This document shows, piece after piece, positions 4,988 through 15,505 of a stretch of 55,923 bases of DNA. A program made the translations under genes and the position numbers. The stretch lies in IMG/VR virus record IMGVR_UViG_3300032053_000094, positions 1-55,923 of that record; one strand, written 5' to 3'. The stretch's first letter is position 1. Every line of letters starts with the position of its first letter. The DNA is from a virus. Taxonomy: Duplodnaviria; Caudoviricetes. The notes below the pieces were generated by a model, which was not told where the DNA came from, ran no database searches, and saw nothing but the letters and a program-made list of their open reading frames with translations.

Positions 4988-5410
4988 GGGGTAGGTATAG
5001 GCATTTGATTTCAGATATCAGGGATAAATGGCACGTAGTCGGATGTCATCTACGACTTGAATCCACGGTGGTAAAATTTAAACGGCAACGTTTTGAACAA
5101 AATGTCTCTTGCTGGTCTTATTAGACAAGACGAGACAGTATCTGTAGCTTAATTGTTATGATACCTTCGGGTCGGGAAGCATACAACCTAGGAACAGCAG
5201 CTTCGTAAGGTTTGACATATACCAGTAAAATGTGTCGGGAGTGACGGGTCAGAGCTCTTTAAAATAATTCTGAGACCAAGTTGTTTGCAGGTGGGTTTCT
5301 CACATATATCAAACCTGATATTTCGGAACATTGAGAACTAATGTTGTACTAAACGTGTAGTCATTTATTGTTGAATCGGAAAGACCGCGGTTCGAATCCG
5401 CGCTACTCCA
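4988..5410 (+). ncRNA. ssrA: tmRNA; predicted tag ORF 5084-5152 (A)GNVLNKMSLAGLIRQDETVSVA*
   Basis: GGGGTAG/CTACTCC-A acceptor stem with G3:U70, T-arm CGCGG-TTCGAAT-CCGCG, internal ORF starting GGC and ending in Ala. Confidence 0.92.
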
Positions 5411-5421
5411 CCTCCACAATC

Positions 5422-5459
5422 AAATCCCGTCATCTCCATTAAATTTGACGGGATTTTTT
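5422..5459. terminator. terminator between tmRNA and HNH gene
   Basis: aaatcccgtca...tgacgggattttt inverted repeat. Confidence 0.7.
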
Positions 5460-5996
5460 ATTCATATTTTCACATATAATTTTACATAATTCCCAAACCT
5501 CTTCATCAGTCATAGTGTTTTTCATATAGTTGATTGATTTGGAAACCCATCTTATATTACCTTTTTCATATCCTTTATTACTATCTATTCTATCTAATGA
5601 TGCGGAGTATATTTGACTTGGTTTGTCTTTACTATAAGACATAAGTTCTAATTTAACACCCGAATAATAACATACACCACTTTGTATATTCCACAACTCT
5701 TTCAAGTCCTCTATGGTTATGTTATAATTTTTGTCTCTTTTTTTTATGGTTCTAAAATGATAATTAAATCCTGTATTTTCGCTTCTTCTATTGTTTGAAT
5801 GTTGAGTAATATCGTATTTGTTTTCTATATTTAGTAAGTGTTTACAATTATTTATACCAACACAAACTCTAGAACAAAAATTATTTCTACCCAATTTTTC
5901 ATTCCTTTTAATTTCCGATAATGGTTTTTCAAATTCAACACCGCAATTATTACAGGTACATTTACCCATTTTTCTATCGTAATTTCTTATTCTCAT
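5439..5996 (-). CDS. free-standing HNH-like (His-Me finger) endonuclease with N-terminal Zn finger
   Basis: CNNC...FCSRVC; CYYSG...SLDRIDSNKGYEKGNIRWVSKSINYMKN. Confidence 0.8.
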   Translation of the reverse strand: MRIRNYDRKMGKCTCNNCGVEFEKPLSEIKRNEKLGRNNFCSRVCVGINNCKHLLNIENKYDITQHSNNRRSENTGFNYHFRTIKKRDKNYNITIEDLKELWNIQSGVCYYSGVKLELMSYSKDKPSQIYSASLDRIDSNKGYEKGNIRWVSKSINYMKNTMTDEEVWELCKIICENMNKKSRQI

Positions 5997-6144
5997 ATCT
6001 TTTATATATAAATATGTGGATGTTAGGGAAAAGATTGTGGAGACGGGAAAATTTCTTTTTTTTAACTATTTGACATTTTTGTTAGATTAAACTATATTTA
6101 TAATCTGAAACAATAAATAAATACCATTAAAAAAAACAGACAAA

Positions 6145-6327
6145 ATGAAAAAAGTATTTTTGGCTTTAACAGTAGCAACTGTGTTAGCATCTTGCGGAGG
6201 TAGTACAACTGGAACAGAATCAACTTGCGACACATGTGTAGTAAAAACAGATTCAACTGTTGTTGTTATTGACACCACTAAAGTGGTAGATACTACTAAA
6301 ACAGTAGAAGTGAAAGAAGTTAAGTAA
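6145..6327 (+). CDS. small lipoprotein
   Basis: MKK + hydrophobic stretch + LASC lipobox, DST/DTT-rich tail, followed by terminator. Confidence 0.75.
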   Translation: MKKVFLALTVATVLASCGGSTTGTESTCDTCVVKTDSTVVVIDTTKVVDTTKTVEVKEVK

Positions 6328-6378
6328 TTTTTATTACGGACTTTAAAATTCTTAAAAACCCTCAATGAGGGTTTTTTT

Positions 6379-7071
6379 TTATCTAATTCTTTTCATCATA
6401 TCTGATAAAGCGGTCATAAAACCAACAAACTTATCTTCGGCAACATCTATTAGGTCTTTAATTTTTTTACCTCCAAACTCCGAATTTAATATTTTATCTA
6501 ATAATGATTCTTCTTTTTCTTGGGACCCTGAAGTACTACCAAAAGAACTTAATGGAGAACCTGGAGTTATTGTCACACCATTACATTTTATTTTACCGTC
6601 ATTTGTTAAAAATTCTTTAATATCGTGACCATCTTCAATACCTATGTGTACGTGGTCATAACTACTATTTGGAAAATCCATAACATATCCTAAAAGTTGT
6701 CCGCACTTTACATGGTCACCTTCTTTAACAGTTGTATCTTTTAAATGGGTATAATAAACATCGGGAAGTCCGTTATCGCTATCTACAGTAAATCCAGCAC
6801 CGAATAATGTTTTACCTTGAGTATGAACAGGAATTGGTCCGTAATTTTTAAAAGTTACTAATTTACCATCGGCAATTGCATAAACAGGTGTACCAATTTG
6901 TGTTGGTATATCCCAAGCATTTCCGCTTTGCCATCCTTTTTGTCCATTGTGACCACCACTTCTTGGTATTGACACTTTAGGTCCACCAAAAAGAGTATCA
7001 CTAGATGAAAGAATTTGTTCTGACATTAATTCTTTAACCCTTAAAATTTCTTGTTGTACTTTTTGTTCCAT
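6379..7071 (-). CDS. M23 family peptidase with N-terminal leader
   Basis: H..AWDI..GTPVYAIADG, YYTHL, VKCGQLLG, HVHIG. Confidence 0.85.
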   Translation of the reverse strand: MEQKVQQEILRVKELMSEQILSSSDTLFGGPKVSIPRSGGHNGQKGWQSGNAWDIPTQIGTPVYAIADGKLVTFKNYGPIPVHTQGKTLFGAGFTVDSDNGLPDVYYTHLKDTTVKEGDHVKCGQLLGYVMDFPNSSYDHVHIGIEDGHDIKEFLTNDGKIKCNGVTITPGSPLSSFGSTSGSQEKEESLLDKILNSEFGGKKIKDLIDVAEDKFVGFMTALSDMMKRIR

Positions 7072-7130
7072 AATTTAATAAATATCTCGGTCTCATTTAA
7101 TGTGTTACAGTATTTATAAATAAAAAACAA

Positions 7131-8000
7131 ATGGAATTACTTAGAATTTATCCAATTGCAAAAACTATACAACCTTTTATTAAAGGTGATGGTGATATAA
7201 CACCTGAAGGAATTTATAAGATAATAACTACAAATCAATATTTGTCATTTATAAATGAATTAATATCTCCTGATAATTTACCTGTATTAGTATTCACTGC
7301 TTACCAACTTTCTATCGGTAATTATGATGAAAAAATTGTTGGTAAAATTAAAAATAATTTATTTGGTTTTAACACTTATGAATTTGGTGACACTGAAAAT
7401 AATGTCGACTGTCCTAAGTGCGATGGTGGTGGTGAAGTAAGTTGTTCTGAATGTGATGGTAATGGTTCAGTAGAGTGTAGGACTTGTGATGGAACTGGTG
7501 AAGAGGATTGTGATGAATGTAACGGTACAGGTGAAGACAATGAAGGTGATAGTTGTAGTGATTGTCATGGTGGAGGTAAGTTTGCTTGTTCTAATTGTGC
7601 TGGGGATGCTAGTGAAGATTGTTCTGAGTGTGGTGGTGGTGGAAATGTTAGTTGTTGGGAATGTGAGGGTACGGGTGAACATCTAATTGACGATAAAGTA
7701 CCATATTCATTGTCAATATACGTATCATACGATACTCAACTAAAAAATGAAATTGAATCCATCATAACTCAAAATAAAGACATTGAAGGAAATTCATTAT
7801 TAAATGAAAAAACATTAACTATTTTTATTGCAGATTATGAAGCGGATACTGAAGAGGTCGAAGAAGTAGATTTAAAATTTGCAAATAAAAATTACTTTGG
7901 TAAAATTGTTGATTTTGAAGAATTAATAATAACTAAAAATCGTAATAATAAATTAACAATTAATAATTTGGATAATCTTGAAGAAAGATTTTATAAATAA
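7131..8000 (+). CDS. protein with 8 DnaJ-type CxxCxGxG zinc-finger repeats, no J domain
   Basis: CPKCDGGG, CSECDGNG, CRTCDGTG, CDECNGTG, CSDCHGGG, CSNCAGDA, CSECGGGG, CWECEGTG. Confidence 0.8.
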   Translation: MELLRIYPIAKTIQPFIKGDGDITPEGIYKIITTNQYLSFINELISPDNLPVLVFTAYQLSIGNYDEKIVGKIKNNLFGFNTYEFGDTENNVDCPKCDGGGEVSCSECDGNGSVECRTCDGTGEEDCDECNGTGEDNEGDSCSDCHGGGKFACSNCAGDASEDCSECGGGGNVSCWECEGTGEHLIDDKVPYSLSIYVSYDTQLKNEIESIITQNKDIEGNSLLNEKTLTIFIADYEADTEEVEEVDLKFANKNYFGKIVDFEELIITKNRNNKLTINNLDNLEERFYK

Positions 8001-8597
8001 TTATTTACCCATTAAAACTCCACCTAAACTTGCAGATATATTAGATAAATGAGAAATATCGTTATCTTCTAACTTAGTTTTTCTTTTTGCAAAATCAATA
8101 CCTAAAATTCCTATGAATTTATCATCTATTGATTTAATTGCAAATAAATAACCTGATTTACATCCAGTATCTTCTGCAATATATTTTAAACCATAGGTGG
8201 CAATTGTTTCATCTTTAAAATCGGGTATCTGAATAGTATCATTTTCTAATAATTGATTAATTGACCTACTAAATAAATTTACTGGAATGCTTTGAAAATT
8301 TGATTGTATTGATGATACATTAGTATTAACTACTTCATAGATAATACTAAATTTTGCCATTGATTTTCCTGTTGGATAATAATTACCACCATTATGAAAT
8401 TGAGCAACCCATACTCTATCGGCTTTGAATTCGTCTCTTATAATTTCAATCTTTGTTTGGATTAATTCACCTTCTTTTAAAGTATCTTCAATAATATCGG
8501 GCTTTTTCTTTCTTTTGTCAAAAAATTGTTTAATTAGTAATAGGGATATAGGTCCTAAAATACCTGTGATAAATGCGACAATTACTTCAGAACTCAT
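8001..8597 (-). CDS. N-terminal TM + GAF-like domain protein (T4 holin T-like architecture)
   Basis: Single TM then basic patch; ADRVWVAQFHNG...SGYLFAIKSIDDKFIGILGIDF GAF-like pattern. Confidence 0.6.
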   Translation of the reverse strand: MSSEVIVAFITGILGPISLLLIKQFFDKRKKKPDIIEDTLKEGELIQTKIEIIRDEFKADRVWVAQFHNGGNYYPTGKSMAKFSIIYEVVNTNVSSIQSNFQSIPVNLFSRSINQLLENDTIQIPDFKDETIATYGLKYIAEDTGCKSGYLFAIKSIDDKFIGILGIDFAKRKTKLEDNDISHLSNISASLGGVLMGK

Positions 8598-8661
8598 AGG
8601 GTTAGCGATTTTAAACTTTATAACTAATAAATATGATTATAAGTATAAAAAACTAAATATA

Positions 8662-9150
8662 TTATTCAAACACCTTATTTTTTTTAAACCAACTTGGGAT
8701 ATTTCTATTTTTCCAATTGGCAATTTCCGATTTTTCACCAATATAATAATTTCTATACGATTGTATAACATCTTCAACTTTGTAGTCGTTTGGCATTGCA
8801 AGTGCAGGTTTTGTAAGTCCTTTGTCACAAATTTGTGCTTTATTTGTGACACACCATTCAATCACATCCTGAGATTTATGTCTTTTACCATACCTGTAGG
8901 TGTACTCTTTAGATAATTCTAATCCAAGTTCACATAGGTACATATAATTAGTTAATGACTCTCTCGCCCATATGGAACAAGGATGGTTTTTGTGTGATAA
9001 TTTATAAGGTACTTGGTCGGTTACTTTATTAGTGATATGATGAACTCCACATAATAACTGAGCGGTTTCCAATATCATCTTAACAACGTGTTTGTCACAA
9101 TGATACTCAGCACATTTTTTAACATCCCAATCTAATAAAAATATATTCAT
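8662..9150 (-). CDS. pyrimidine-dimer DNA glycosylase / endonuclease V-like
   Basis: MNIFLLD..CAEYHCDKHVVKMILETAQLL..HKNHPCSIW..EYTYRYGKRH..YRNYY. Confidence 0.8.
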   Translation of the reverse strand: MNIFLLDWDVKKCAEYHCDKHVVKMILETAQLLCGVHHITNKVTDQVPYKLSHKNHPCSIWARESLTNYMYLCELGLELSKEYTYRYGKRHKSQDVIEWCVTNKAQICDKGLTKPALAMPNDYKVEDVIQSYRNYYIGEKSEIANWKNRNIPSWFKKNKVFE

Positions 9151-9151
9151 A

Positions 9152-9694
9152 CTATATAATTTCTAAATTTGTGTTTGCTTGTTGTTTGTTAGAATCAGAC
9201 ATAATACGATAAGTTCTGACAACACCTAAATCAGTCAATGTAATACGTTCGATAGTAATACCCCAATCACTAACAATCTCTTGTACTTGGTCTTGTAAAT
9301 AAGGACTTATTTCATACAAATCAACCCAATTATATCCTTCTACGGTATCTCTAATAACACCCTGAGTAGTGTCCACAAGTACATCAGACGCATGCATCAC
9401 ATTCAGTAGGAATTTCTTAACATCGTTAACATGATACCTAACAATAGATTTAAGTACAATACTTTTTTCATCAAGGGTTGTCAACGTTTGAGGTTGAAGA
9501 TGAACGGTTTGTGTTATAACTTCATGAGTCCAAACTTTGTCTATAAATGGTATTTTAAATATTAAACCAGCATTAACAACTTTAATGAATTTACCAAACC
9601 TTAAAAAAACTCCTTTCTCCCATTGATTTACTATTGAAAAAGGAAGTACGTCACTAATTATGTGAATTAAAAAATCAATTAATTTGTCAAACAT
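9152..9694 (-). CDS. SPFH/Band 7 domain protein
   Basis: VNQWEKGVFLRFGKF..GLIFKIPFID..TLTTLD..WGITIERITLTD. Confidence 0.85.
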   Translation of the reverse strand: MFDKLIDFLIHIISDVLPFSIVNQWEKGVFLRFGKFIKVVNAGLIFKIPFIDKVWTHEVITQTVHLQPQTLTTLDEKSIVLKSIVRYHVNDVKKFLLNVMHASDVLVDTTQGVIRDTVEGYNWVDLYEISPYLQDQVQEIVSDWGITIERITLTDLGVVRTYRIMSDSNKQQANTNLEII

Positions 9695-9733
9695 ATATTT
9701 TATTTTTATTTATACAAATATACGACATTTACT

Positions 9734-9982
9734 TTACTTTACAAAATTTTTTATTTTGTAATAACACATTATAGATACCACTAATAAATTAAAAGTATAA
9801 TTTATCATTAACGGAACCTCTTTTAAATCAAACCCATAAAACAAACAAAATATCTCCCCAAATAACCACATTAAGAGAAACCCTAATCCTAGATGGCATC
9901 GTCCGTCCTTGATGGTTCTAAATAGCTCAGGGACTCCACAAAATGTAAGTAGTAAACTTCCTATTAATCCTGTATAGTTCAT
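9734..9982 (-). CDS. PQ-loop/SemiSWEET-like small membrane protein (start MNYTG)
   Basis: Three hydrophobic segments, 'GVPELFRTIK' PQ-loop-like, 'PLMINY'. Confidence 0.65.
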   Translation of the reverse strand: MNYTGLIGSLLLTFCGVPELFRTIKDGRCHLGLGFLLMWLFGEIFCLFYGFDLKEVPLMINYTFNLLVVSIMCYYKIKNFVK

Positions 9983-9983
9983 A

Positions 9984-10445
9984 TTAAATAATTTGAAATG
10001 CGTCGTGAACAATTTTTCTAATTGATTTTGAATCTTGTGTGTTTCCAATCACCGCACCATTTTTTAATGTAAATGCATGTCTCTTAACAATCAGGATATA
10101 ACTGCCTGTTGGATGCTTTTTAATAAACTGATTTAGAGTTGTTCTTTTCATTCCACCCTTCGCAATATCTAAGGTTCTCAACTTCTCAATTGGTTTAATT
10201 GACTTGTTATTAAAAGTTTCTCCCTTGGTTGACATAGTCGCCATTTTACAAGACACCGACATTGTTCCTTTTCTATTTTGTCTACCAAATTTTTCCTTAA
10301 CCCAAGTGTGGGCTTTATCATATGGAGCTTCATAAGCGGATGCAACGGCTCTAACAAAACAGTCATTAGTTTCACTTTTAGCTATTGCAGATTCTGAGTA
10401 CCCAATGATGGCGGTTGATGTTTGTATGTATGGTAATTGTTTCAT
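9984..10445 (-). CDS. conserved phage protein, possible papain-like Cys/His fold
   Basis: NDCFVRAVA ... YILIVKRHAFTLKNG. Confidence 0.55.
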   Translation of the reverse strand: MKQLPYIQTSTAIIGYSESAIAKSETNDCFVRAVASAYEAPYDKAHTWVKEKFGRQNRKGTMSVSCKMATMSTKGETFNNKSIKPIEKLRTLDIAKGGMKRTTLNQFIKKHPTGSYILIVKRHAFTLKNGAVIGNTQDSKSIRKIVHDAFQII

Positions 10446-10480
10446 AATGTAAAAGTAATACATTATTTTGAGACGGCAAA

Positions 10481-11851
10481 TTATAATACCTTAATTTCTA
10501 CTCTACGATTTAATTGTCTGTTACCATCATTATTATTTGGAACTATAGGTTTTCTATTACCATATCCGACAGTAATTAAATTATCGGGTTTTAAACCTTT
10601 ACCAATAAGATATGACTTAACAGATACGGCTCTTTCTTCTGACTGTAAATCATTTCTTTTATTTAAACCGATAGCATCACTATGACCACCAATTTCAATT
10701 TTCATATCAGGACTATTACGCAATAATCTTATAATGATATCAAGTTGACGATAAGATTCTGGTCTCAATACAGAACTACCAAAATCAAAAAGTATTCTTC
10801 CTTTACTAAATTCAGTAAGTAACTTTTCATTACTCATAGTGTCTAAAGAATCACAAGGTATTGTTTTGGTAATATATAGAGTATCAACAATTGTTATCGT
10901 ATCTATTATGGGTTCAATTATTGTTTTTATCCTTGTTTTAGGACGAAAATTTTCAGGTATAATAGTTGTCGCAATATCTGCACCTCCCTTTTCCCCTGGT
11001 ACTTTATATTTAAAATTGGTTGAAACATATCCAATACTATCATTTTCTCCTATAGAAAAATACGCATCCCATCTTTTAGTGTTAATTGGTTTACCCACAT
11101 TAATTGGTTCTGACCAATGTAACCATGAACTATCTAATCTACGAGTCATCCAAATATCAAAGTTTCCAAGACCTCCTTTACTATCTGTTGAATAATAAAG
11201 AGTTTCATTGTCGGGAGCAATATAAGGACTCATCTCATCATAATCCTCAGTACTTAATTCGTCTAATTTAATCGGCATCGAATACTCATTAGTTGTATCA
11301 TTTAAATAACTAATCCAAAGGTCATTCCATTCACCATTTCTCTCATCATCAAAATAAAATATCATTACTTTTTCATCATGAGATAATGTAACCCCTGTAA
11401 ATTTACCTTTTGATAACCATTCATATCCACGAATTTTAATTGGTTGTGGTACACCCCAAACATCATTAAATTTACTTACAATAGAATAACCTCTACGAAT
11501 AATTCCGTTAGTACTACCATCTCTAGAACCTCTAATGACAATACGATTACCGTCAGGTGATGCCCAAAAAACACCATTATATCTCTCACAATTTATGTAA
11601 TCAGGTAATCTAACAGATTTAGACCAATCTCCATTTTGGTCACGTTCAGAAACCCAAATGTCTTGACCATCTTTATATTTATTTATGGGATTTCCCTCAA
11701 CAGTAAAAAATAGATAATGGCCATTGGCAGATACTACAGGTCTAATTTCCTGATATTTTGAATTAACGTTTTCATTTAAAAATTTAAGTTGTGCGTTAAC
11801 CCCTACTGTCATAAAAACAGATAAAATCAATAAGTTTAATAAATATTTCAT
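10481..11851 (-). CDS. secreted PD40 beta-propeller + OmpA-like peptidoglycan-binding protein
   Basis: Signal peptide; repeated 'E.SP.I.PD..TLY.S....G.G..DIW'; C-terminal ILFDFGSS..IEIGGHSD..LQSEERA..GYG..NRRVE. Confidence 0.9.
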   Translation of the reverse strand: MKYLLNLLILSVFMTVGVNAQLKFLNENVNSKYQEIRPVVSANGHYLFFTVEGNPINKYKDGQDIWVSERDQNGDWSKSVRLPDYINCERYNGVFWASPDGNRIVIRGSRDGSTNGIIRRGYSIVSKFNDVWGVPQPIKIRGYEWLSKGKFTGVTLSHDEKVMIFYFDDERNGEWNDLWISYLNDTTNEYSMPIKLDELSTEDYDEMSPYIAPDNETLYYSTDSKGGLGNFDIWMTRRLDSSWLHWSEPINVGKPINTKRWDAYFSIGENDSIGYVSTNFKYKVPGEKGGADIATTIIPENFRPKTRIKTIIEPIIDTITIVDTLYITKTIPCDSLDTMSNEKLLTEFSKGRILFDFGSSVLRPESYRQLDIIIRLLRNSPDMKIEIGGHSDAIGLNKRNDLQSEERAVSVKSYLIGKGLKPDNLITVGYGNRKPIVPNNNDGNRQLNRRVEIKVL

Positions 11852-11900
11852 ATAATTAATATTTTGTATATTAATAAGTATTACACTTTTAAAAAAAATA

Positions 11901-12067
11901 ACACCCTAATTTATCCAACTTACAGGTGTATTGGCTGTCCCCCAATACGGGGTTAGGAATAATCATTCGTCTTCACGAAGTCGAGCTGACTTGCTCAGGA
12001 GTTATCCCCTTCACTCCAAAGTAGGTCCCCATACGGACATCACTCCGTTTCTCATCATGTAGGGTAC
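11901..12067 (-). ncRNA. candidate structured non-coding RNA A (multi-hairpin, closed by ACCCTA/TAGGGT)
   Basis: GC-enriched, ORF-free, at least 5 inverted repeats, just 3' of tRNA-Arg. Confidence 0.55.
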
Positions 12068-12095
12068 ATTATCCGTTGTCATGTTTCGGAACGTG

Positions 12096-12167
12096 TAGTC
12101 TCATCAAGAATCGAACTTGAATCTACTGCTTAGAAGGCAGTCGTTCTATCCGTTGAACTATGAAACC
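12096..12167 (-). tRNA. tRNA-Arg(UCU)
   Basis: Cloverleaf; ACTGC-CTTCTAA-GCAGT; TTCGA T-loop; CCA not encoded. Confidence 0.92.
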
Positions 12168-12173
12168 TAATAG

Positions 12174-12278
12174 TACAAGAGGAAGGACTTGCACCTTCAT
12201 GCTGTTACCAGCGAGGGCATGTTACCCTTGTGTCTTTCTACTGATGATGGTACCACCATCTACTTCCACCACTCTTGT
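12174..12278 (-). ncRNA. aberrant class II (Leu-like) tRNA-like RNA with D-loop hairpin insertion and non-canonical anticodon loop
   Basis: ACAAGAG/CTCTTGT-A acceptor, TGGTGGAA..AGACAC D-arm, GCTG-GTAA-CAGC variable arm, GAAGG-TGCAAGT-CCTTC T-arm. Confidence 0.7.
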
Positions 12279-12287
12279 AAAAAACTG

Positions 12288-12359
12288 CGGTCTCAGCGGG
12301 AATCGAACCCGCCACATTCCCGTGACAGGGGAATATTATAACCAATTAACTATAAGACC
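12288..12359 (-). tRNA. tRNA-Asp(GUC)
   Basis: TTCCC-CTGTCAC-GGGAA anticodon arm, G73. Confidence 0.93.
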
Positions 12360-12362
12360 TTG

Positions 12363-12512
12363 AAAAAAGGAAAACAGAAGATGGGTCAGTGGACATCTGT
12401 TTTTATGATTGGCGTTACTCCGTATTTGAAGGATTGTCTCCTATTACCCCTCCGATTAATAACTGTTTCTAATGTTACCACCATTATCTATCTTTCCCCA
12501 ATCAACCTTTTT
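12363..12512 (-). ncRNA. candidate structured non-coding RNA B
   Basis: Nested pairings AAAAAGG/CCTTTTT, TGATTGG/CCAATCA, AAAACAGATG/CATCTTCTGTTTT; immediately 5' of tRNA-Asp. Confidence 0.5.
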
Positions 12513-13151
12513 TTATTTTATAATTCTACCCTTACTCCAACCTTCAGGTATTAAACTATCTTTTTTTATTTTTTTGTTTTCATCACCATTTGTTATCCAA
12601 CAAGTACCGTATTGTGAATTTTTTTCACCATTTTGTTTTATTTTATTTTTATCTCCTATTTTTCTTTTATGTTCCTCACTAATATTTTTATTTTTAGTGG
12701 TACTATAATTTATGACACCTTTTTTATGGTTTTTTATAGTATTTTCTATTAAAATCTTGATAATTTTTTTTCTAAAATCATTGTTTTTCCATTTCTCTAT
12801 CATATAGTCAGATGCTCCTTTACGAATCTTATCTAAAGTTTTTTTTGGTAACCCAATTAATCCTCCAGTTCCACCCTCTTTTAGATTCATACATAATCCA
12901 TCATTAACTAAATCAATATTCACTATTTTTTTTTCATGTTCAAGTAACGATTCTCTTGAATCAAAAAAATTTAAAATTTCTTTAGAATGATTCTCAATAC
13001 CATATTTTCTGATACTATATCTTAATCTTTTCCCACTACCTAAATAACCATCATCAATATTTGTTGTCGAATGAATTCCAATATAAAATCTATTGGTTAT
13101 TTTACAGGTTGTTTTATACATATAATGTATTTTCTTTTTTTGTCTTGGCAT
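12513..13151 (-). CDS. free-standing GIY-YIG homing endonuclease (Seg-like, NUMOD3-like)
   Basis: YMYKTT..FYIGIH..DGYLGSG..KYG.ENH; SEEHKRKIG. Confidence 0.88.
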   Translation of the reverse strand: MPRQKKKIHYMYKTTCKITNRFYIGIHSTTNIDDGYLGSGKRLRYSIRKYGIENHSKEILNFFDSRESLLEHEKKIVNIDLVNDGLCMNLKEGGTGGLIGLPKKTLDKIRKGASDYMIEKWKNNDFRKKIIKILIENTIKNHKKGVINYSTTKNKNISEEHKRKIGDKNKIKQNGEKNSQYGTCWITNGDENKKIKKDSLIPEGWSKGRIIK

Positions 13152-13198
13152 AATTATCTTTTATAATAAATATGCTCAAGGTACAAAAAAGTTCAGGG

Positions 13199-13270
13199 TA
13201 CCACGGACGGGAATCGAACCCGTGACTCTTCCGTGAAAGGGAAGCGTCTTAACCCCTTGACCACCGCGGC
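13199..13270 (-). tRNA. tRNA-Glu(UUC)
   Basis: CTTCC-CTTTCAC-GGAAG anticodon arm, full cloverleaf. Confidence 0.93.
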
Positions 13271-13272
13271 AT

Positions 13273-13401
13273 TTAATTTTTTTTATTATCTAAAATTTCA
13301 TTAATAACATTTTTTGCGTTTTTAATTTCATCTTCAGGTAAAGCCCAAATAAACAAAGAAATTAAAATAAAAACTGTTACAAAATAGAGTATTGTTACCA
13401 T
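13273..13401 (-). CDS. 42-aa single-TM peptide
   Basis: MVTILYFVTVFILISLFIWALPEDEIKN...; read manually. Confidence 0.45.
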   Translation of the reverse strand: MVTILYFVTVFILISLFIWALPEDEIKNAKNVINEILDNKKN

Positions 13402-13417
13402 ATTATTTTTATTTTAT

Positions 13418-13759
13418 TTATAATCCTTTTGTTATCCAATTACACATTGCATTTGACATTGAGATATCTTCCTTTGACATATTAAACATTTCTTCCTCGG
13501 TCATTACCGTTACACCGCCATAACTTGATATAGTATGGTTAGGATTGTTGGTATAAACATCTACAATCCCGTTATCGCCACTATATTCATCACAGATGTC
13601 CTGAACCGAAAACTCATTTTTATGATTACTCCAACGTATGGAACCATAACACCTTAATTCGGTTAAATATATAAACCCATCAGAGGTGTCTAATATCTCC
13701 TGATAAAGTTTGTTGGCTTTGTTTTTAGCCCTCACATAATTTTTAATTAATTGTTCCAT
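13418..13759 (-). CDS. hypothetical protein (start MEQLIK)
   Basis: Own TTTG-N20-TATCTTTG promoter at 13764-13795. Confidence 0.7.
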   Translation of the reverse strand: MEQLIKNYVRAKNKANKLYQEILDTSDGFIYLTELRCYGSIRWSNHKNEFSVQDICDEYSGDNGIVDVYTNNPNHTISSYGGVTVMTEEEMFNMSKEDISMSNAMCNWITKGL

Positions 13760-13805
13760 AACACAAAGATATAAAACCTTTTTCAAACAAACAAAACTTT
13801 TTTTG

Positions 13806-13878
13806 AGCCCAAGATAGGAATCGAACCTACAACCTTCACTTTACAAAAGTGCTGCTCTGCCAATTGAGCTACTCGGGC
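13806..13878 (-). tRNA. tRNA-Thr(UGU)
   Basis: CACT-TTTGTAA-AGTG anticodon arm, full cloverleaf. Confidence 0.92.
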
Positions 13879-13885
13879 ATGTTAG

Positions 13886-13957
13886 TGTGACAGCGGGATT
13901 CGAACCCTGATTAACTGAACCACAATCAGTCGTGTTAACCTTTACACTACAGTCACC
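13886..13957 (-). tRNA. tRNA-His(GUG), atypical/possibly degenerate
   Basis: ACTGA-TTGTGGT-TCAGT; G-1 present but A73, T:T acceptor mismatch, T-stem 1 nt short. Confidence 0.75.
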
Positions 13958-13962
13958 ATATG

Positions 13963-14034
13963 CACGCATGTAAGGACTCGAACCTTCATCTTCGGTTTTG
14001 GAGACCGACATTCTACCAATTGAACTACACACGC
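13963..14034 (-). tRNA. tRNA-Trp(CCA)
   Basis: TCGGT-CTCCAAA-ACCGA anticodon arm, G73. Confidence 0.92.
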
Positions 14035-14043
14035 ATTTTATTG

Positions 14044-14115
14044 AGGTCAGAATCAGATTCGAACTGATGTAAAAGGTTTTGCAGACCTTCGCCTAAACCA
14101 CTCGGCCATCCGACC
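14044..14115 (-). tRNA. tRNA-Cys(GCA)
   Basis: AAGGT-CTGCAAA-ACCTT anticodon arm, U73. Confidence 0.93.
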
Positions 14116-14117
14116 AT

Positions 14118-14154
14118 AAAACAAAAAACCCCGAGATTTTGTCCCGAGGTTTTC
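14118..14154 (-). terminator. intrinsic terminator (attenuator) directly before tRNA-Cys
   Basis: AAAA-CCTCGGGA-CAAAA-TCTCGGGG-TTTTTTGTTTT. Confidence 0.8.
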
Positions 14155-14174
14155 TGAAATGTTATTTATAATTT

Positions 14175-14276
14175 TTATTTATAAAACAAATTGGAACTTC
14201 GGTACATAATAACATCACACTCTTGATGCCAAGTTGTGCAAACCGTAGATGACGTTGTATGTTTTTGAGTTCTCAT
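14175..14276 (-). CDS. putative attenuator leader peptide MRTQKHTTSSTVCTTWHQECDVIMYRSSNLFYK
   Basis: 33 aa, A-rich start context, between promoter and terminator; enriched in amino acids of downstream tRNAs. Confidence 0.72.
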   Translation of the reverse strand: MRTQKHTTSSTVCTTWHQECDVIMYRSSNLFYK

Positions 14277-14299
14277 TGTTTTAATTTTTAATTGTTTCA

Positions 14300-14331
14300 C
14301 AAATATACTAATAAGTATTCTAATAATCAAA
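14300..14331 (-). promoter_or_regulatory. Bacteroidota sigma70-type promoter of leader/tRNA array
   Basis: TTTG (14331-14328)-N20-TATATTTG (14307-14300). Confidence 0.75.
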
Positions 14332-14397
14332 AAAATCTTTTTTAGTAAAATCAAATATTTATAGATAACAAATAAATTCTTTTAAAACAAAAAACAA

Positions 14398-14568
14398 ATG
14401 ACAAAAGAACAAATTTTAGGTCTTGTAAGACACGTATTAACTTTCGTAGGTGGTATTTTAATCACCAAAGGTCTTCTTGACGAAGCATCATCAACAGAAG
14501 TGATTGGTGGTATTTTAGGTTTGGCTGGTACTATCTGGTCAATAATCGACAAAAAGAAAGTGGCTTAA
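14398..14568 (+). CDS. 56-aa two-TM putative holin
   Basis: MTKEQILGLVRHVLTFVGGILITKG..VIGGILGLAGTIWSIIDKKK; TATTTAT upstream, terminator downstream; not in ORF track. Confidence 0.7.
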   Translation: MTKEQILGLVRHVLTFVGGILITKGLLDEASSTEVIGGILGLAGTIWSIIDKKKVA

Positions 14569-14617
14569 TTGTAACACTTATTAATTACTAAGAGTCAGAT
14601 TTTTCTGACTCTTTTTT

Positions 14618-14788
14618 TTATAATGTATCTTCGGTATGTACTTTATCATCATCCCAATCTAACCATCCTTCACTTTCGTTATGGTCGGGATTTTCTTTTT
14701 TGTATTTCATTTGTTTATCAATACCTCTAGCCCACAACCAAGATATTAGTACGGTTACTAAAAACATTAATAGGTAAACTTTCCACAT
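14618..14788 (-). CDS. 56-aa membrane peptide (paralog of 27916-28065)
   Basis: MWKVYLLMFLVTVLISWLWARGIDKQMKYKKENPD... Confidence 0.7.
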   Translation of the reverse strand: MWKVYLLMFLVTVLISWLWARGIDKQMKYKKENPDHNESEGWLDWDDDKVHTEDTL

Positions 14789-14791
14789 AGC

Positions 14792-14980
14792 TTAAATGTT
14801 ATTACAATATTCTTTTATTAAATCTATTAAAATATTATTATCATGTTTCCATTCTTTCCAAGTTTCAAAATCTTTTAATTTTTCCAAAACTTCTTCAGGT
14901 ACTAACATAAAACCTTCAGGTGCAATTCCTTTAAATTTGTAATAATGTGAGTTTTTAATTCTTTCTTCGATAACATTCAT
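14792..14980 (-). CDS. hypothetical protein
   Basis: 62-aa ORF in tight operon. Confidence 0.6.
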   Translation of the reverse strand: MNVIEERIKNSHYYKFKGIAPEGFMLVPEEVLEKLKDFETWKEWKHDNNILIDLIKEYCNNI

Positions 14981-14985
14981 ATTAA

Positions 14986-15162
14986 TTAAATTTTTTTAAC
15001 AATATAATTATATCCTGAATCAGAATTTTTTTGAAATAATGAACAGATTTTATCTGCTTCTTCAACAGTATCAAATTCCAAAACTTCGTCATCGTCATCT
15101 AAAACAATAACAGGTAAGGTAACCCCATTGTTATTCTTCATTTTTTTAATTATGCAGTACAT
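14986..15162 (-). CDS. 58-aa hypothetical protein
   Basis: MYCIIKKMKNNNGVTLPVIVLDDDDEVLEFDTVEEA...; fills gap exactly. Confidence 0.6.
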   Translation of the reverse strand: MYCIIKKMKNNNGVTLPVIVLDDDDEVLEFDTVEEADKICSLFQKNSDSGYNYIVKKI

Positions 15163-15163
15163 A

Positions 15164-15505
15164 TTATTTCATAAATATTTGTATAAGAATTATAATAAAA
15201 GCTAAAAATAAACAAAGTATTGTTTTAGATGTTATTGGTTCTTTAAATAAAAAATGACTCATTAACGCAAAAACAATAACACCAACACCAAATCCTAAAA
15301 TTCTTGTTGGCCATAATTCTCCATTAAAAGCAATAACCATATTTTTTGTCGATTTAAGATACAACCAAGTTAATGGTATTCCTGATAATAATAAGATTAT
15401 TGGAAATTTTGAATACCAATCATACTTGGCATTACCTTGTAACTGTACAAATGTTCCAGCCTGAGCAAAAAACATATACAAAAGACCTAAAAAAAAACTA
15501 TTCAT
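15164..15505 (-). CDS. 4-TM membrane protein (DMT/EamA-like)
   Basis: Four hydrophobic helices, 'FLFKEPITSK' DMT-type motif. Confidence 0.65.
   Translation of the reverse strand: MNSFFLGLLYMFFAQAGTFVQLQGNAKYDWYSKFPIILLLSGIPLTWLYLKSTKNMVIAFNGELWPTRILGFGVGVIVFALMSHFLFKEPITSKTILCLFLAFIIILIQIFMK

Follow-up and report, generated by a model that had tools for sequence, protein, structure and literature searches.

The element described here lies on the minus strand of a 55,923-nucleotide (nt) stretch of viral DNA (Duplodnaviria; Caudoviricetes), positions 1 to 55,923 of IMG/VR record IMGVR_UViG_3300032053_000094, which is a single 55.9-kilobase (kb) contig and is called the window throughout. Between positions 14,331 and 14,044, a promoter, a 33-codon open reading frame (ORF) and a predicted intrinsic terminator follow one another, and the first gene of a transfer RNA (tRNA) array starts immediately afterwards. 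A preliminary description of this DNA had read the same order of parts and proposed that they form a leader-peptide attenuator; each part was found where it had been placed. The tRNA genes run Cys, Trp, His, Thr, with Glu, Asp and Arg(UCU) more distal, again as first described; all were called with ARAGORN and confirmed with the Rfam tRNA model at 52-68 bits. The features, all on the minus strand, are the following.

14331-14328, minus strand: upstream promoter box TTTG, read directly from the sequence
14307-14300, minus strand: downstream promoter box TATATTTG, also read directly, with a 20-nt spacer to TTTG and about 24 nt before the ATG
14283-14268, minus strand: segment 1, around the start codon, a putative anti-antiterminator that pairs with segment 2 in the ribosome-free minimum free energy (MFE) fold
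14276-14175, minus strand: leader ORF, 33 codons plus TAA (ATG 14276-14274, TAA 14177-14175), peptide MRTQKHTTSSTVCTTWHQECDVIMYRSSNLFYK
14273-14214, minus strand: control block, leader codons 2-21, 14/20 of them for Thr, His, Cys, Trp, Glu, Asp or Arg(AGA)
14205-14195, minus strand: segment 2, GTACCGAAGTT, leader codons 24-28, with the terminator 5' arm as alternative partner (predicted antiterminator)
14156-14122, minus strand: predicted intrinsic terminator hairpin, 15 pairs, 6 of them G-C, loop of 5
14149-14142, 14141-14137 and 14136-14129, minus strand: terminator core, respectively CCTCGGGA, loop and TCTCGGGG, with A-U pairs extending the stem
14128-14117, minus strand: U-tract TTTTTTGTTTTA, ending 2 nt before tRNA-Cys
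14115-13805, minus strand: tRNA sub-array Cys-Trp-His-Thr
14115-14043, minus strand: tRNA-Cys(GCA)
14034-13962, minus strand: tRNA-Trp(CCA)
13957-13885, minus strand: tRNA-His(GUG)
13878-13805, minus strand: tRNA-Thr(UGU)
13271-13196, minus strand: tRNA-Glu(UUC), with two ORFs between it and the sub-array
12359-12287, minus strand: tRNA-Asp(GUC)
12167-12095, minus strand: tRNA-Arg(UCU), which reads the AGA of leader codon 2

The promoter boxes, which we take to be of the two-box Bacteroidota type, belong to a region whose conservation extends to two homologous leaders, L047 and L144 (loci of relatives carry L numbers), in which the downstream box reads TATCTTTG. In the ORF listing, the leader peptide is contained in a longer frame that starts with TTG. 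The terminator is valued at -18.6 kcal/mol; a scan of the window gave 4 terminator-like sites in 4 kb against 1.4 expected, and many terminators of relatives have an almost identical U-tract downstream. Homologues such as L047 carry the Glu, Asp and Arg tRNAs inside a contiguous array.

The codon content of the leader corresponds to the tRNAs that it precedes. Thr, His, Cys and Trp make up 11 of its first 20 residues, the count given in the preliminary description, with a binomial p=3.6e-7 against the amino-acid frequencies in long ORFs of related loci. The further match that had been claimed, of Arg(AGA), Glu and Asp codons to the distal tRNAs, also stands, with 14 residues of the seven-tRNA set among the 20 that follow Met (p=1e-4). 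In the last 12 residues of the leader, by comparison, 1 is from that set against 3.3 expected. Thr, His, Cys and Trp account for 4/20 and 4/19 residues in the other two frames, and a fraction of 7.5e-5 of 200,000 nucleotide shuffles of codons 2-21 contained at least 10 of them.

This leader belongs to a family. A pattern made from the start of the leader matched 33 viral and 119 metagenome stretches, or 153 hits with the window, and the 74 in which the ORF is 25-40 codons long and a tRNA lies no more than 350 nt away were counted as leaders. The other 79 hits (8 of them cut by the locus end) were set aside, as the pattern is loose and these matches are mostly due to chance, especially in the metagenomes. 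Among the counted hits are 39 distinct leaders that share the promoter and an N-terminus of the form MR...HT(M/T)S, and the ORF, whose conservation had been named as a point to verify, is intact in 20/20 aligned family members. The least conserved part of the peptide is its central block, which changes with the array: SF(I/T)ICSKW stands before Ile-Phe-Lys-Trp-Arg-Cys-His, SPMNQQNWN before Pro-(Asn)-Trp-Gln, SFSNQPNWN before Pro-Asn-Leu-Gln and, in the window, SSTVCTTWH before Cys-Trp-His-Thr. Over the 39 leaders, 578 of 880 control-block residues lie in the set of their own array, against 510 when arrays are permuted (standard deviation (sd) 10.3, z=6.6). The same can be seen for single amino acids in the first 18 leaders, which have on average 3.25 Asn with the corresponding tRNA in the array and 0.21 without it, 1.75 and 0.07 Pro, and 1.08 and 0.2 Cys.

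The nearest relative of the window, L161 (MRTQKHTMSFTICSKWTAIRHIPMSRVNSFV), precedes an Ala-Ile-Cys-Trp-Arg-Ser-His-Thr array and has a 5' part identical to that of the window. Compared with it, the window has lost its Phe, Ile and Lys codons and gained Thr codons, of which it has six. The control block is rewritten to fit the present array, which argues for selection after the rearrangement. No second leader of the Cys-Trp-His-Thr type was found among the 74 counted hits.

The same layout recurs in more distant relatives. A Clp-type prohead protease is encoded 1.3 kb away, and a search with it returned 42 viral contigs of up to 349 kb (identity 48-87%), in which the region ahead of tRNA sub-arrays likewise contains a short ORF between a promoter and a hairpin with a U-tract. 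Further arrays were collected through a 17-nt box, described below, and all loci were scanned under one fixed rule: a hairpin of -6.5 kcal/mol or lower with a T-tract, at most 130 nt upstream of a tRNA, and an ORF of 18-55 codons that begins with ATG and ends 10-45 nt before the hairpin. The output was 95 units, of which 64, in 27 clusters, have an ORF. Short ORFs occur at 52 of the 79 non-redundant tRNA-proximal terminators and at 122 of the 890 other terminators of the same loci (odds ratio 12, p=3e-23). In the 54 distinct units the median ORF has 33 codons, exactly as in the window, 45 ORFs begin with MK or MR, and 21 terminators end within 15 nt of the first tRNA, as the one in the window does.

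Across these families, own-set residues number 302 of 690 (tRNAs within 1500 nt, 23 clusters), against 238 expected from the proteome. Permuting the arrays gave a mean of 244 (sd 12.3, z=4.66), and none of 20,000 permutations reached 302. Six settings of distance and set size yielded z values of 3.36-5.97; in four of them no permutation reached the observed value, and in the others p was 0.0005 and 0.00015. The other two reading frames were at background (229/656 and 204/610). Because leaders and arrays are inherited together, we grouped the clusters by eye into 16 superfamilies and used the first cluster of each, which left a Fisher combined p of 2.2e-5 (1.2e-4 without the superfamily of the window) and 14 of the 16 above expectation. 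The control that we judge cleanest compares leaders within one genome: in 7/7 such pairs, which amount to 4 independent genome types, the leaders lean to the amino acids exclusive to their own array (one-sided p 0.0001-0.13, 6/7 below 0.05). The choice among synonymous codons points the same way for three amino acids, with codons readable by the downstream anticodons at 13/16 for Arg (9.0 expected), 13/25 for Ser (8.4) and 28/33 for Ile (23.5). Small-ORF content and tRNA set, whose relation the preliminary description had proposed to follow in related phages, co-vary across families, inside the family of the window and between leaders of one genome.

The other half of an attenuator is a pair of mutually exclusive RNA structures. 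The leader RNA of the window folds better than its shuffles (MFE z=-4.1; 0/200 equal it), and its MFE fold contains a long hairpin between segments 1 and 2. Segment 2 (14205-14195) can alternatively pair at 9/11 positions with the terminator 5' arm (AACCTCGGGAC, 14151-14141), which reproduces the pairing first described. This duplex is estimated at -9.5 kcal/mol, a value that a fraction of 0.04 of non-cognate terminators match. In the window, L160/L188 and L167, the antiterminator lies in a register 8 nt further upstream than in the rest of the family; L167 has a perfect 9-mer there (TCCCGAGGT against ACCTCGGGA), which in the window is interrupted by two mismatches, and the window also offers an alternative register of 5 base pairs (bp), GUUCC with GGGAC. 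In folds with a masked ribosome and with the terminator 3' arm not yet made, segment 2 is predicted to lie on the 5' arm when the ribosome stands at Thr7, Cys13, His17, Cys20 or Asp21, and in constrained folds with the ribosome at the stop codon, or with no ribosome, the 5' arm stays free. The expectation that masking would release the antiterminator is thus borne out by the folding predictions at five of six control codons and fails at Trp16.

In relatives, we compared the last 15 codons and the spacer of each leader with the 5' arm and loop of its cognate terminator in the 27 clusters. Cognate duplexes average -13.0 kcal/mol, non-cognate ones -8.3 to -8.5, and 0/20,000 permutations reach the observed value; 20/27 clusters beat their own shuffles at z<-1.64. 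An alignment of 20 sequences of the window's family has 99.4% of cells paired in the terminator helix, with 9 two-sided cells, and 92.5% in the antiterminator helix, where sliding the partner by 1-3 columns leaves 20-49%; this second helix has 7 two-sided cells, a number that 0/500 shuffles reach. The covariation that had been suggested as a check on the antiterminator is present, both as two-sided changes within this family and as cognate complementarity across clusters. RNAalifold further predicts, in the family, a 5-bp helix between GAGAC, right after the AUG, and GUCUC in segment 2, which has no two-sided changes; the GAGAC of segment 1 resembles the terminator 5' arm. Counted from the C-terminus, residues 8-28 are in-set at 0.72-0.73 (about 0.51 expected) and the last 8 are at background (0.46-0.53), and the best complementary segment lies mostly within these last 8 codons. 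With control codons upstream and the complementary segment in the unenriched last codons, this is the arrangement of a classical attenuator.

The large family whose arrays carry Thr, Gln, Pro and Lys tRNAs has a feature of its own. Its leaders (L078, L096, L090 and others) have a small hairpin over the stop codon, with compensatory changes between GTTAAT/ATTAAC and GTTAAA/TTTAAC, which hints at a different switch geometry. An antiterminator of the usual kind was sought there by eye; a short and poorly supported pairing in one subgroup and an 11-nt pairing in the L154 type came to light, and we do not claim either.

These results support the attenuator interpretation of the preliminary description. 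Judging from sequence and predicted structure, the 33-codon ORF and the hairpin with its U-tract probably constitute a ribosome-mediated transcription attenuator that exerts feedback on the phage tRNA supply. We infer that the leader is translated and that transcription can either end at the hairpin or read through it, along the following lines. Transcription would begin some 17 nt upstream of the ATG, with co-transcriptional translation of the leader. With plentiful tRNAs for the control codons, the ribosome would reach the end of the ORF and cover segment 2 or separate it from the terminator; the terminator would then fold, and RNA polymerase would stop 2 nt before tRNA-Cys. If any one of the charged Thr, His, Cys, Trp, Arg-AGA, Glu or Asp tRNAs were scarce, the ribosome would stall in the control block, leaving segment 2 free to pair with the terminator 5' arm, and polymerase would enter the tRNA genes. 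Without a ribosome, segment 1 would hold segment 2, making termination the default. The outcome would be negative feedback on the supply of exactly the tRNAs of the array, for which one stalled codon would suffice; we favour this polarity because the geometry matches that of a classical attenuator.

Many relatives carry a second signal in the same place. An exact 17-nt motif, GTTCTTTGACATATTGG, occurs between the attenuator or first tRNA and the remainder of many phage tRNA arrays (L043-L157, e.g. L044:5691-5707, L078 and L117:1826-1842) and also in bacterial loci (L192:2545-2561, L193:2075-2091 and L216:3101-3117); in Bacteroidota rrn operons it stands in the 16S-23S spacer, after the spacer tRNAs and before 23S. 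At least 115 viral and at least 120 genome stretches contain it. We take it to be the rrn antitermination box, boxA, and it looks like a box that phages borrowed for their tRNA operons. By analogy, its position just after the attenuator or first tRNA suggests that transcription of the untranslated array past the attenuator may be termination-resistant. Its core is present in 47/54 distinct units of relatives, a frequency that is biased because boxed loci were fetched with this motif. Near the array of the window (5000-15200) the core has no match at up to 1 mismatch; window-wide, 18 matches were found against 23.6 expected. Such a box differs from the leader in being a processive antitermination signal and not a sensor.

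The setting is likely a large phage of a Bacteroidota host, as indicated indirectly by the relatives of the protease, by the presumed promoter type and by the rrn-type box of relatives. Among named records, the protease is 63% identical to that of a 635-kb uncultured phage and 44-47% to those of Prevotella Lak phages. A holin gene (PF23987; 14398-14568, plus strand) diverges from the leader promoter, and at its end a hairpin (14590-14613) between A-runs and T-runs could terminate in both directions. Within the tRNA region, a 212-codon ORF (12513-13151, minus strand) encodes a GIY-YIG homing endonuclease that matches phrog_314. Its DNA is 71-73% identical over about 205 nt to segB/segD of T4-like coliphages, which is unexpectedly high for phages of very different hosts; segB of T4 likewise stands among tRNA genes. 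DNA searches of named phages with this region of the window and with the unit of a relative returned tRNA and homing-endonuclease matches only, and no cultured phage with the leader element was found in them; the sole match in a huge phage, LR756504.1, is an array without a leader upstream. An exact 30-nt pattern from tRNA-Cys had 0 matching stretches in viral contigs, and a neighbouring protein of 632 amino acids used as a probe gave 595 pattern matches, 0 of them confirmed. In public RNA runs, sampled at shares of only 0.05-0.06, one run (X1) contained a contig of a relative of about 95% identity that spans 14102-14202 and another that covers 14240-14335, neither of which informs on transcription; library DNA is possible in this run, because the second contig includes the promoter. 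Contigs from the other runs cover parts of tRNAs only.

Two further conserved elements were seen beside tRNA genes. A stretch of about 50 nt with a hairpin and T-rich tract at its end (…aaaaacagatgtccactga.ccatcttctgttttcc…; 12360-12440, minus strand) precedes tRNA-Asp in the window and tRNA-Tyr in L003, L004 and L006, and has no Rfam match. An element of about 80 nt (…gtctcggt.cgctctgacgaaagt.aac.acgaggtctcggt.gacagaa…) lies directly 5' of tRNA-Gly/tRNA-Asn in several relatives (L001 upstream of 6600, L003 of 3906, L004 of 3961, L038 of 2877) and may be a structured RNA or a degenerate tRNA.

Several observations weigh against the attenuator as proposed. The automatically collected set includes likely false leaders, for example L051, L060, L068 and L155. 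Many relatives have a promoter-like or rrn-type box between the terminator and the tRNA, so that those arrays may be expressed without the leader. Independent switches of array are few and leaders and arrays are co-inherited, and the permutation p-values therefore overstate independence; with the worst cluster of each superfamily, the combined p is only 0.010. Leu codons are not matched to the anticodons (10/27 against 10.9 expected), and the Gly match is barely above expectation. Cognate complementarity does not exceed that of shuffles in 7/27 clusters, including the Thr-Gln-Pro-Lys family, in which 0.31 of non-cognate terminators pair equally well with L117. In the window itself the antiterminator is weak, with its two mismatches and -9.5 against -18.6 kcal/mol for the terminator, and no member of its subtype has a weaker one; placing the ribosome at Trp16 leaves the outer helix of segments 1 and 2 intact and gives a fold without an antiterminator. 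Finally, Phe, Ile and in some cases Lys codons persist in four leader variants whose arrays (L358, L368, L428, L362, L399, L409, L426) open with tRNA-Trp right behind the terminator and have no tRNAs for Ile, Phe or Lys. In two leader variants of these Trp-first arrays the Lys codon is replaced, and the arrays may be recent deletions that preceded adaptation of the leader.

Some of these points bear on what else the locus could be. Retained codons for lost tRNAs, the co-inheritance of leaders and arrays and the MK or MR N-termini of 45/54 units would suit an ordinary micro-gene (for a peptide, or for a small RNA, with a terminator of its own) that stands ahead of tRNA arrays by chance and whose composition matches the array through shared ancestry or base composition. 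This is highly improbable in view of a match that is specific to one frame, exceeds both the proteome expectation and permuted arrays, recurs in 14/16 superfamilies and between leaders of one genome, and is carried by a central block that is the least conserved part of the peptide and changes with the array. A ribosome sensor with the opposite polarity, in which smooth translation promotes expression, or a leader that acts on the processing or stability of the tRNA precursor while the terminator mainly shields the array from transcription arriving from upstream, would accommodate the boxes after the terminator in many relatives, the weak antiterminator of the window and the hairpins that abut the tRNA 5' end in 21/54 units, which could affect 5' processing. 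We regard it as quite improbable, since it leaves unexplained why the last 8 codons are unenriched and complementary to the cognate arm and why segment 1 mimics that arm, all of which are marks of a design in which a stall leads to read-through.

The same sensor could also serve another purpose: instead of giving feedback on tRNA supply or detecting defence nucleases, it would mainly report amino-acid starvation or the general translation capacity of the infected cell and so time a transcription unit. Classical leaders sense amino acids, any shortage of a charged tRNA stalls a ribosome whatever its cause, and the leader data do not separate a shortage of tRNA from one of amino acid. This purpose nonetheless seems unlikely: the output consists of tRNA genes, which are unable to cure amino-acid starvation, and the control codons change with the array, as expected only if tRNA identity matters. 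For the window alone, we have considered a decaying copy, whose array was rearranged, whose antiterminator degenerated and whose hairpin just terminates, leaving the tRNA genes poorly expressed or constitutively read through. Two mismatches where L167 has a perfect 9-mer, an array split by ORFs and a homing endonuclease, the lack of an rrn-type box near it and of a second leader of its type among the 74 hits are in keeping with decay; the control block rewritten to the present array and the alternative GUUCC:GGGAC register are not, and we find decay unlikely.

The attenuator that we favour has counterparts among known systems. It is most like the trpL, hisL, thrL, pheL, leuL and ilv leaders of Proteobacteria, in which a short leader with diagnostic codons precedes an intrinsic terminator, the 3' end of the leader forms with the terminator 5' arm an antiterminator that excludes the terminator, and, in the absence of translation, the antiterminator strand is held by a segment further upstream, a role that segment 1 may play here. 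Mixtures of two or three amino acids already occur in the thr and ilv leaders. Unlike these amino-acid operon leaders, the phage element precedes tRNA genes and not enzyme genes, its control block combines up to about 10 amino acids in a mixed string, in place of a run of one residue, and this block is rewritten as the array gains or loses tRNAs; the codons correspond to tRNA identity, not to a biosynthetic pathway. It also differs in being carried by Bacteroidota phages, often in several copies per genome, one for each sub-array. An Rfam scan of 11500-15500 gave leader families below threshold only; His_leader (RF00514) reached 25.6 bits against a threshold of 49 (E=0.34; 14119-14229, minus strand), a resemblance of layout only. 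With T-box riboswitches, of which the same scan had no match at E up to 1, the element would share a read-through of a terminator that is tied to the supply of charged tRNA by codon-anticodon recognition. T-boxes, however, bind uncharged tRNA directly and without a ribosome, rely on a single specifier codon and regulate genes for synthetases and amino acids, chiefly in Firmicutes, whereas the phage element is an ORF with a frame-specific signal. The tRNA cluster of T4, with segB, is a parallel in that a GIY-YIG homing endonuclease has likewise invaded a phage tRNA cluster. We know of no leader-peptide attenuator in that cluster, and our searches of full-text literature, within the text they cover, found none.

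Nor did the full-text literature, with most subscription journals outside the search, yield any account of phage tRNA genes preceded by a leader peptide or attenuator, in agreement with the preliminary description, whose author knew of none. In the searchable text of PMC3082878 the single passage on a 'tRNA operon' is irrelevant to the question, and in that of PMC10264068 the words terminator, promoter, leader and attenuat- are absent. The element appears to represent a widespread and apparently undescribed class of attenuators in large Bacteroidota phages. It is possible, and we put it forward tentatively, that each tRNA sub-array is under a programmable ribosome sensor of this kind, so that the terminator opens, and replacement tRNAs are made, only when any of the listed tRNAs runs short through host shut-off, a host that lacks the tRNA or an anticodon nuclease, and that selection rewrites the leader at each gain or loss of a tRNA. 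That tRNA cleavage by host defences is what is sensed is speculation; the ribosome would stall under several conditions, of which such cleavage is one.

It has long been asked why phages carry tRNA genes and how these genes are controlled. The proposed roles include codon compensation, the replacement of tRNAs once the host is shut off, and evasion of defences that cleave tRNAs. If the proposed mechanism is true, the phage measures the supply of exactly the tRNAs of its array and makes them on demand, and the question of their purpose becomes testable, since the shortages that the phage expects can be read from the leader. The element would be the first known case of tRNA genes under an attenuator, as well as a natural multi-input OR-gate, and would widen the range of leader-peptide attenuation to include tRNA genes, phages and Bacteroidota. 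Annotators would gain a rule for finding such unannotated small ORFs, and synthetic biology a compact natural multi-input sensor. For the biology of these phages, the leaders would provide a direct read-out of the host tRNAs that fail in infection.

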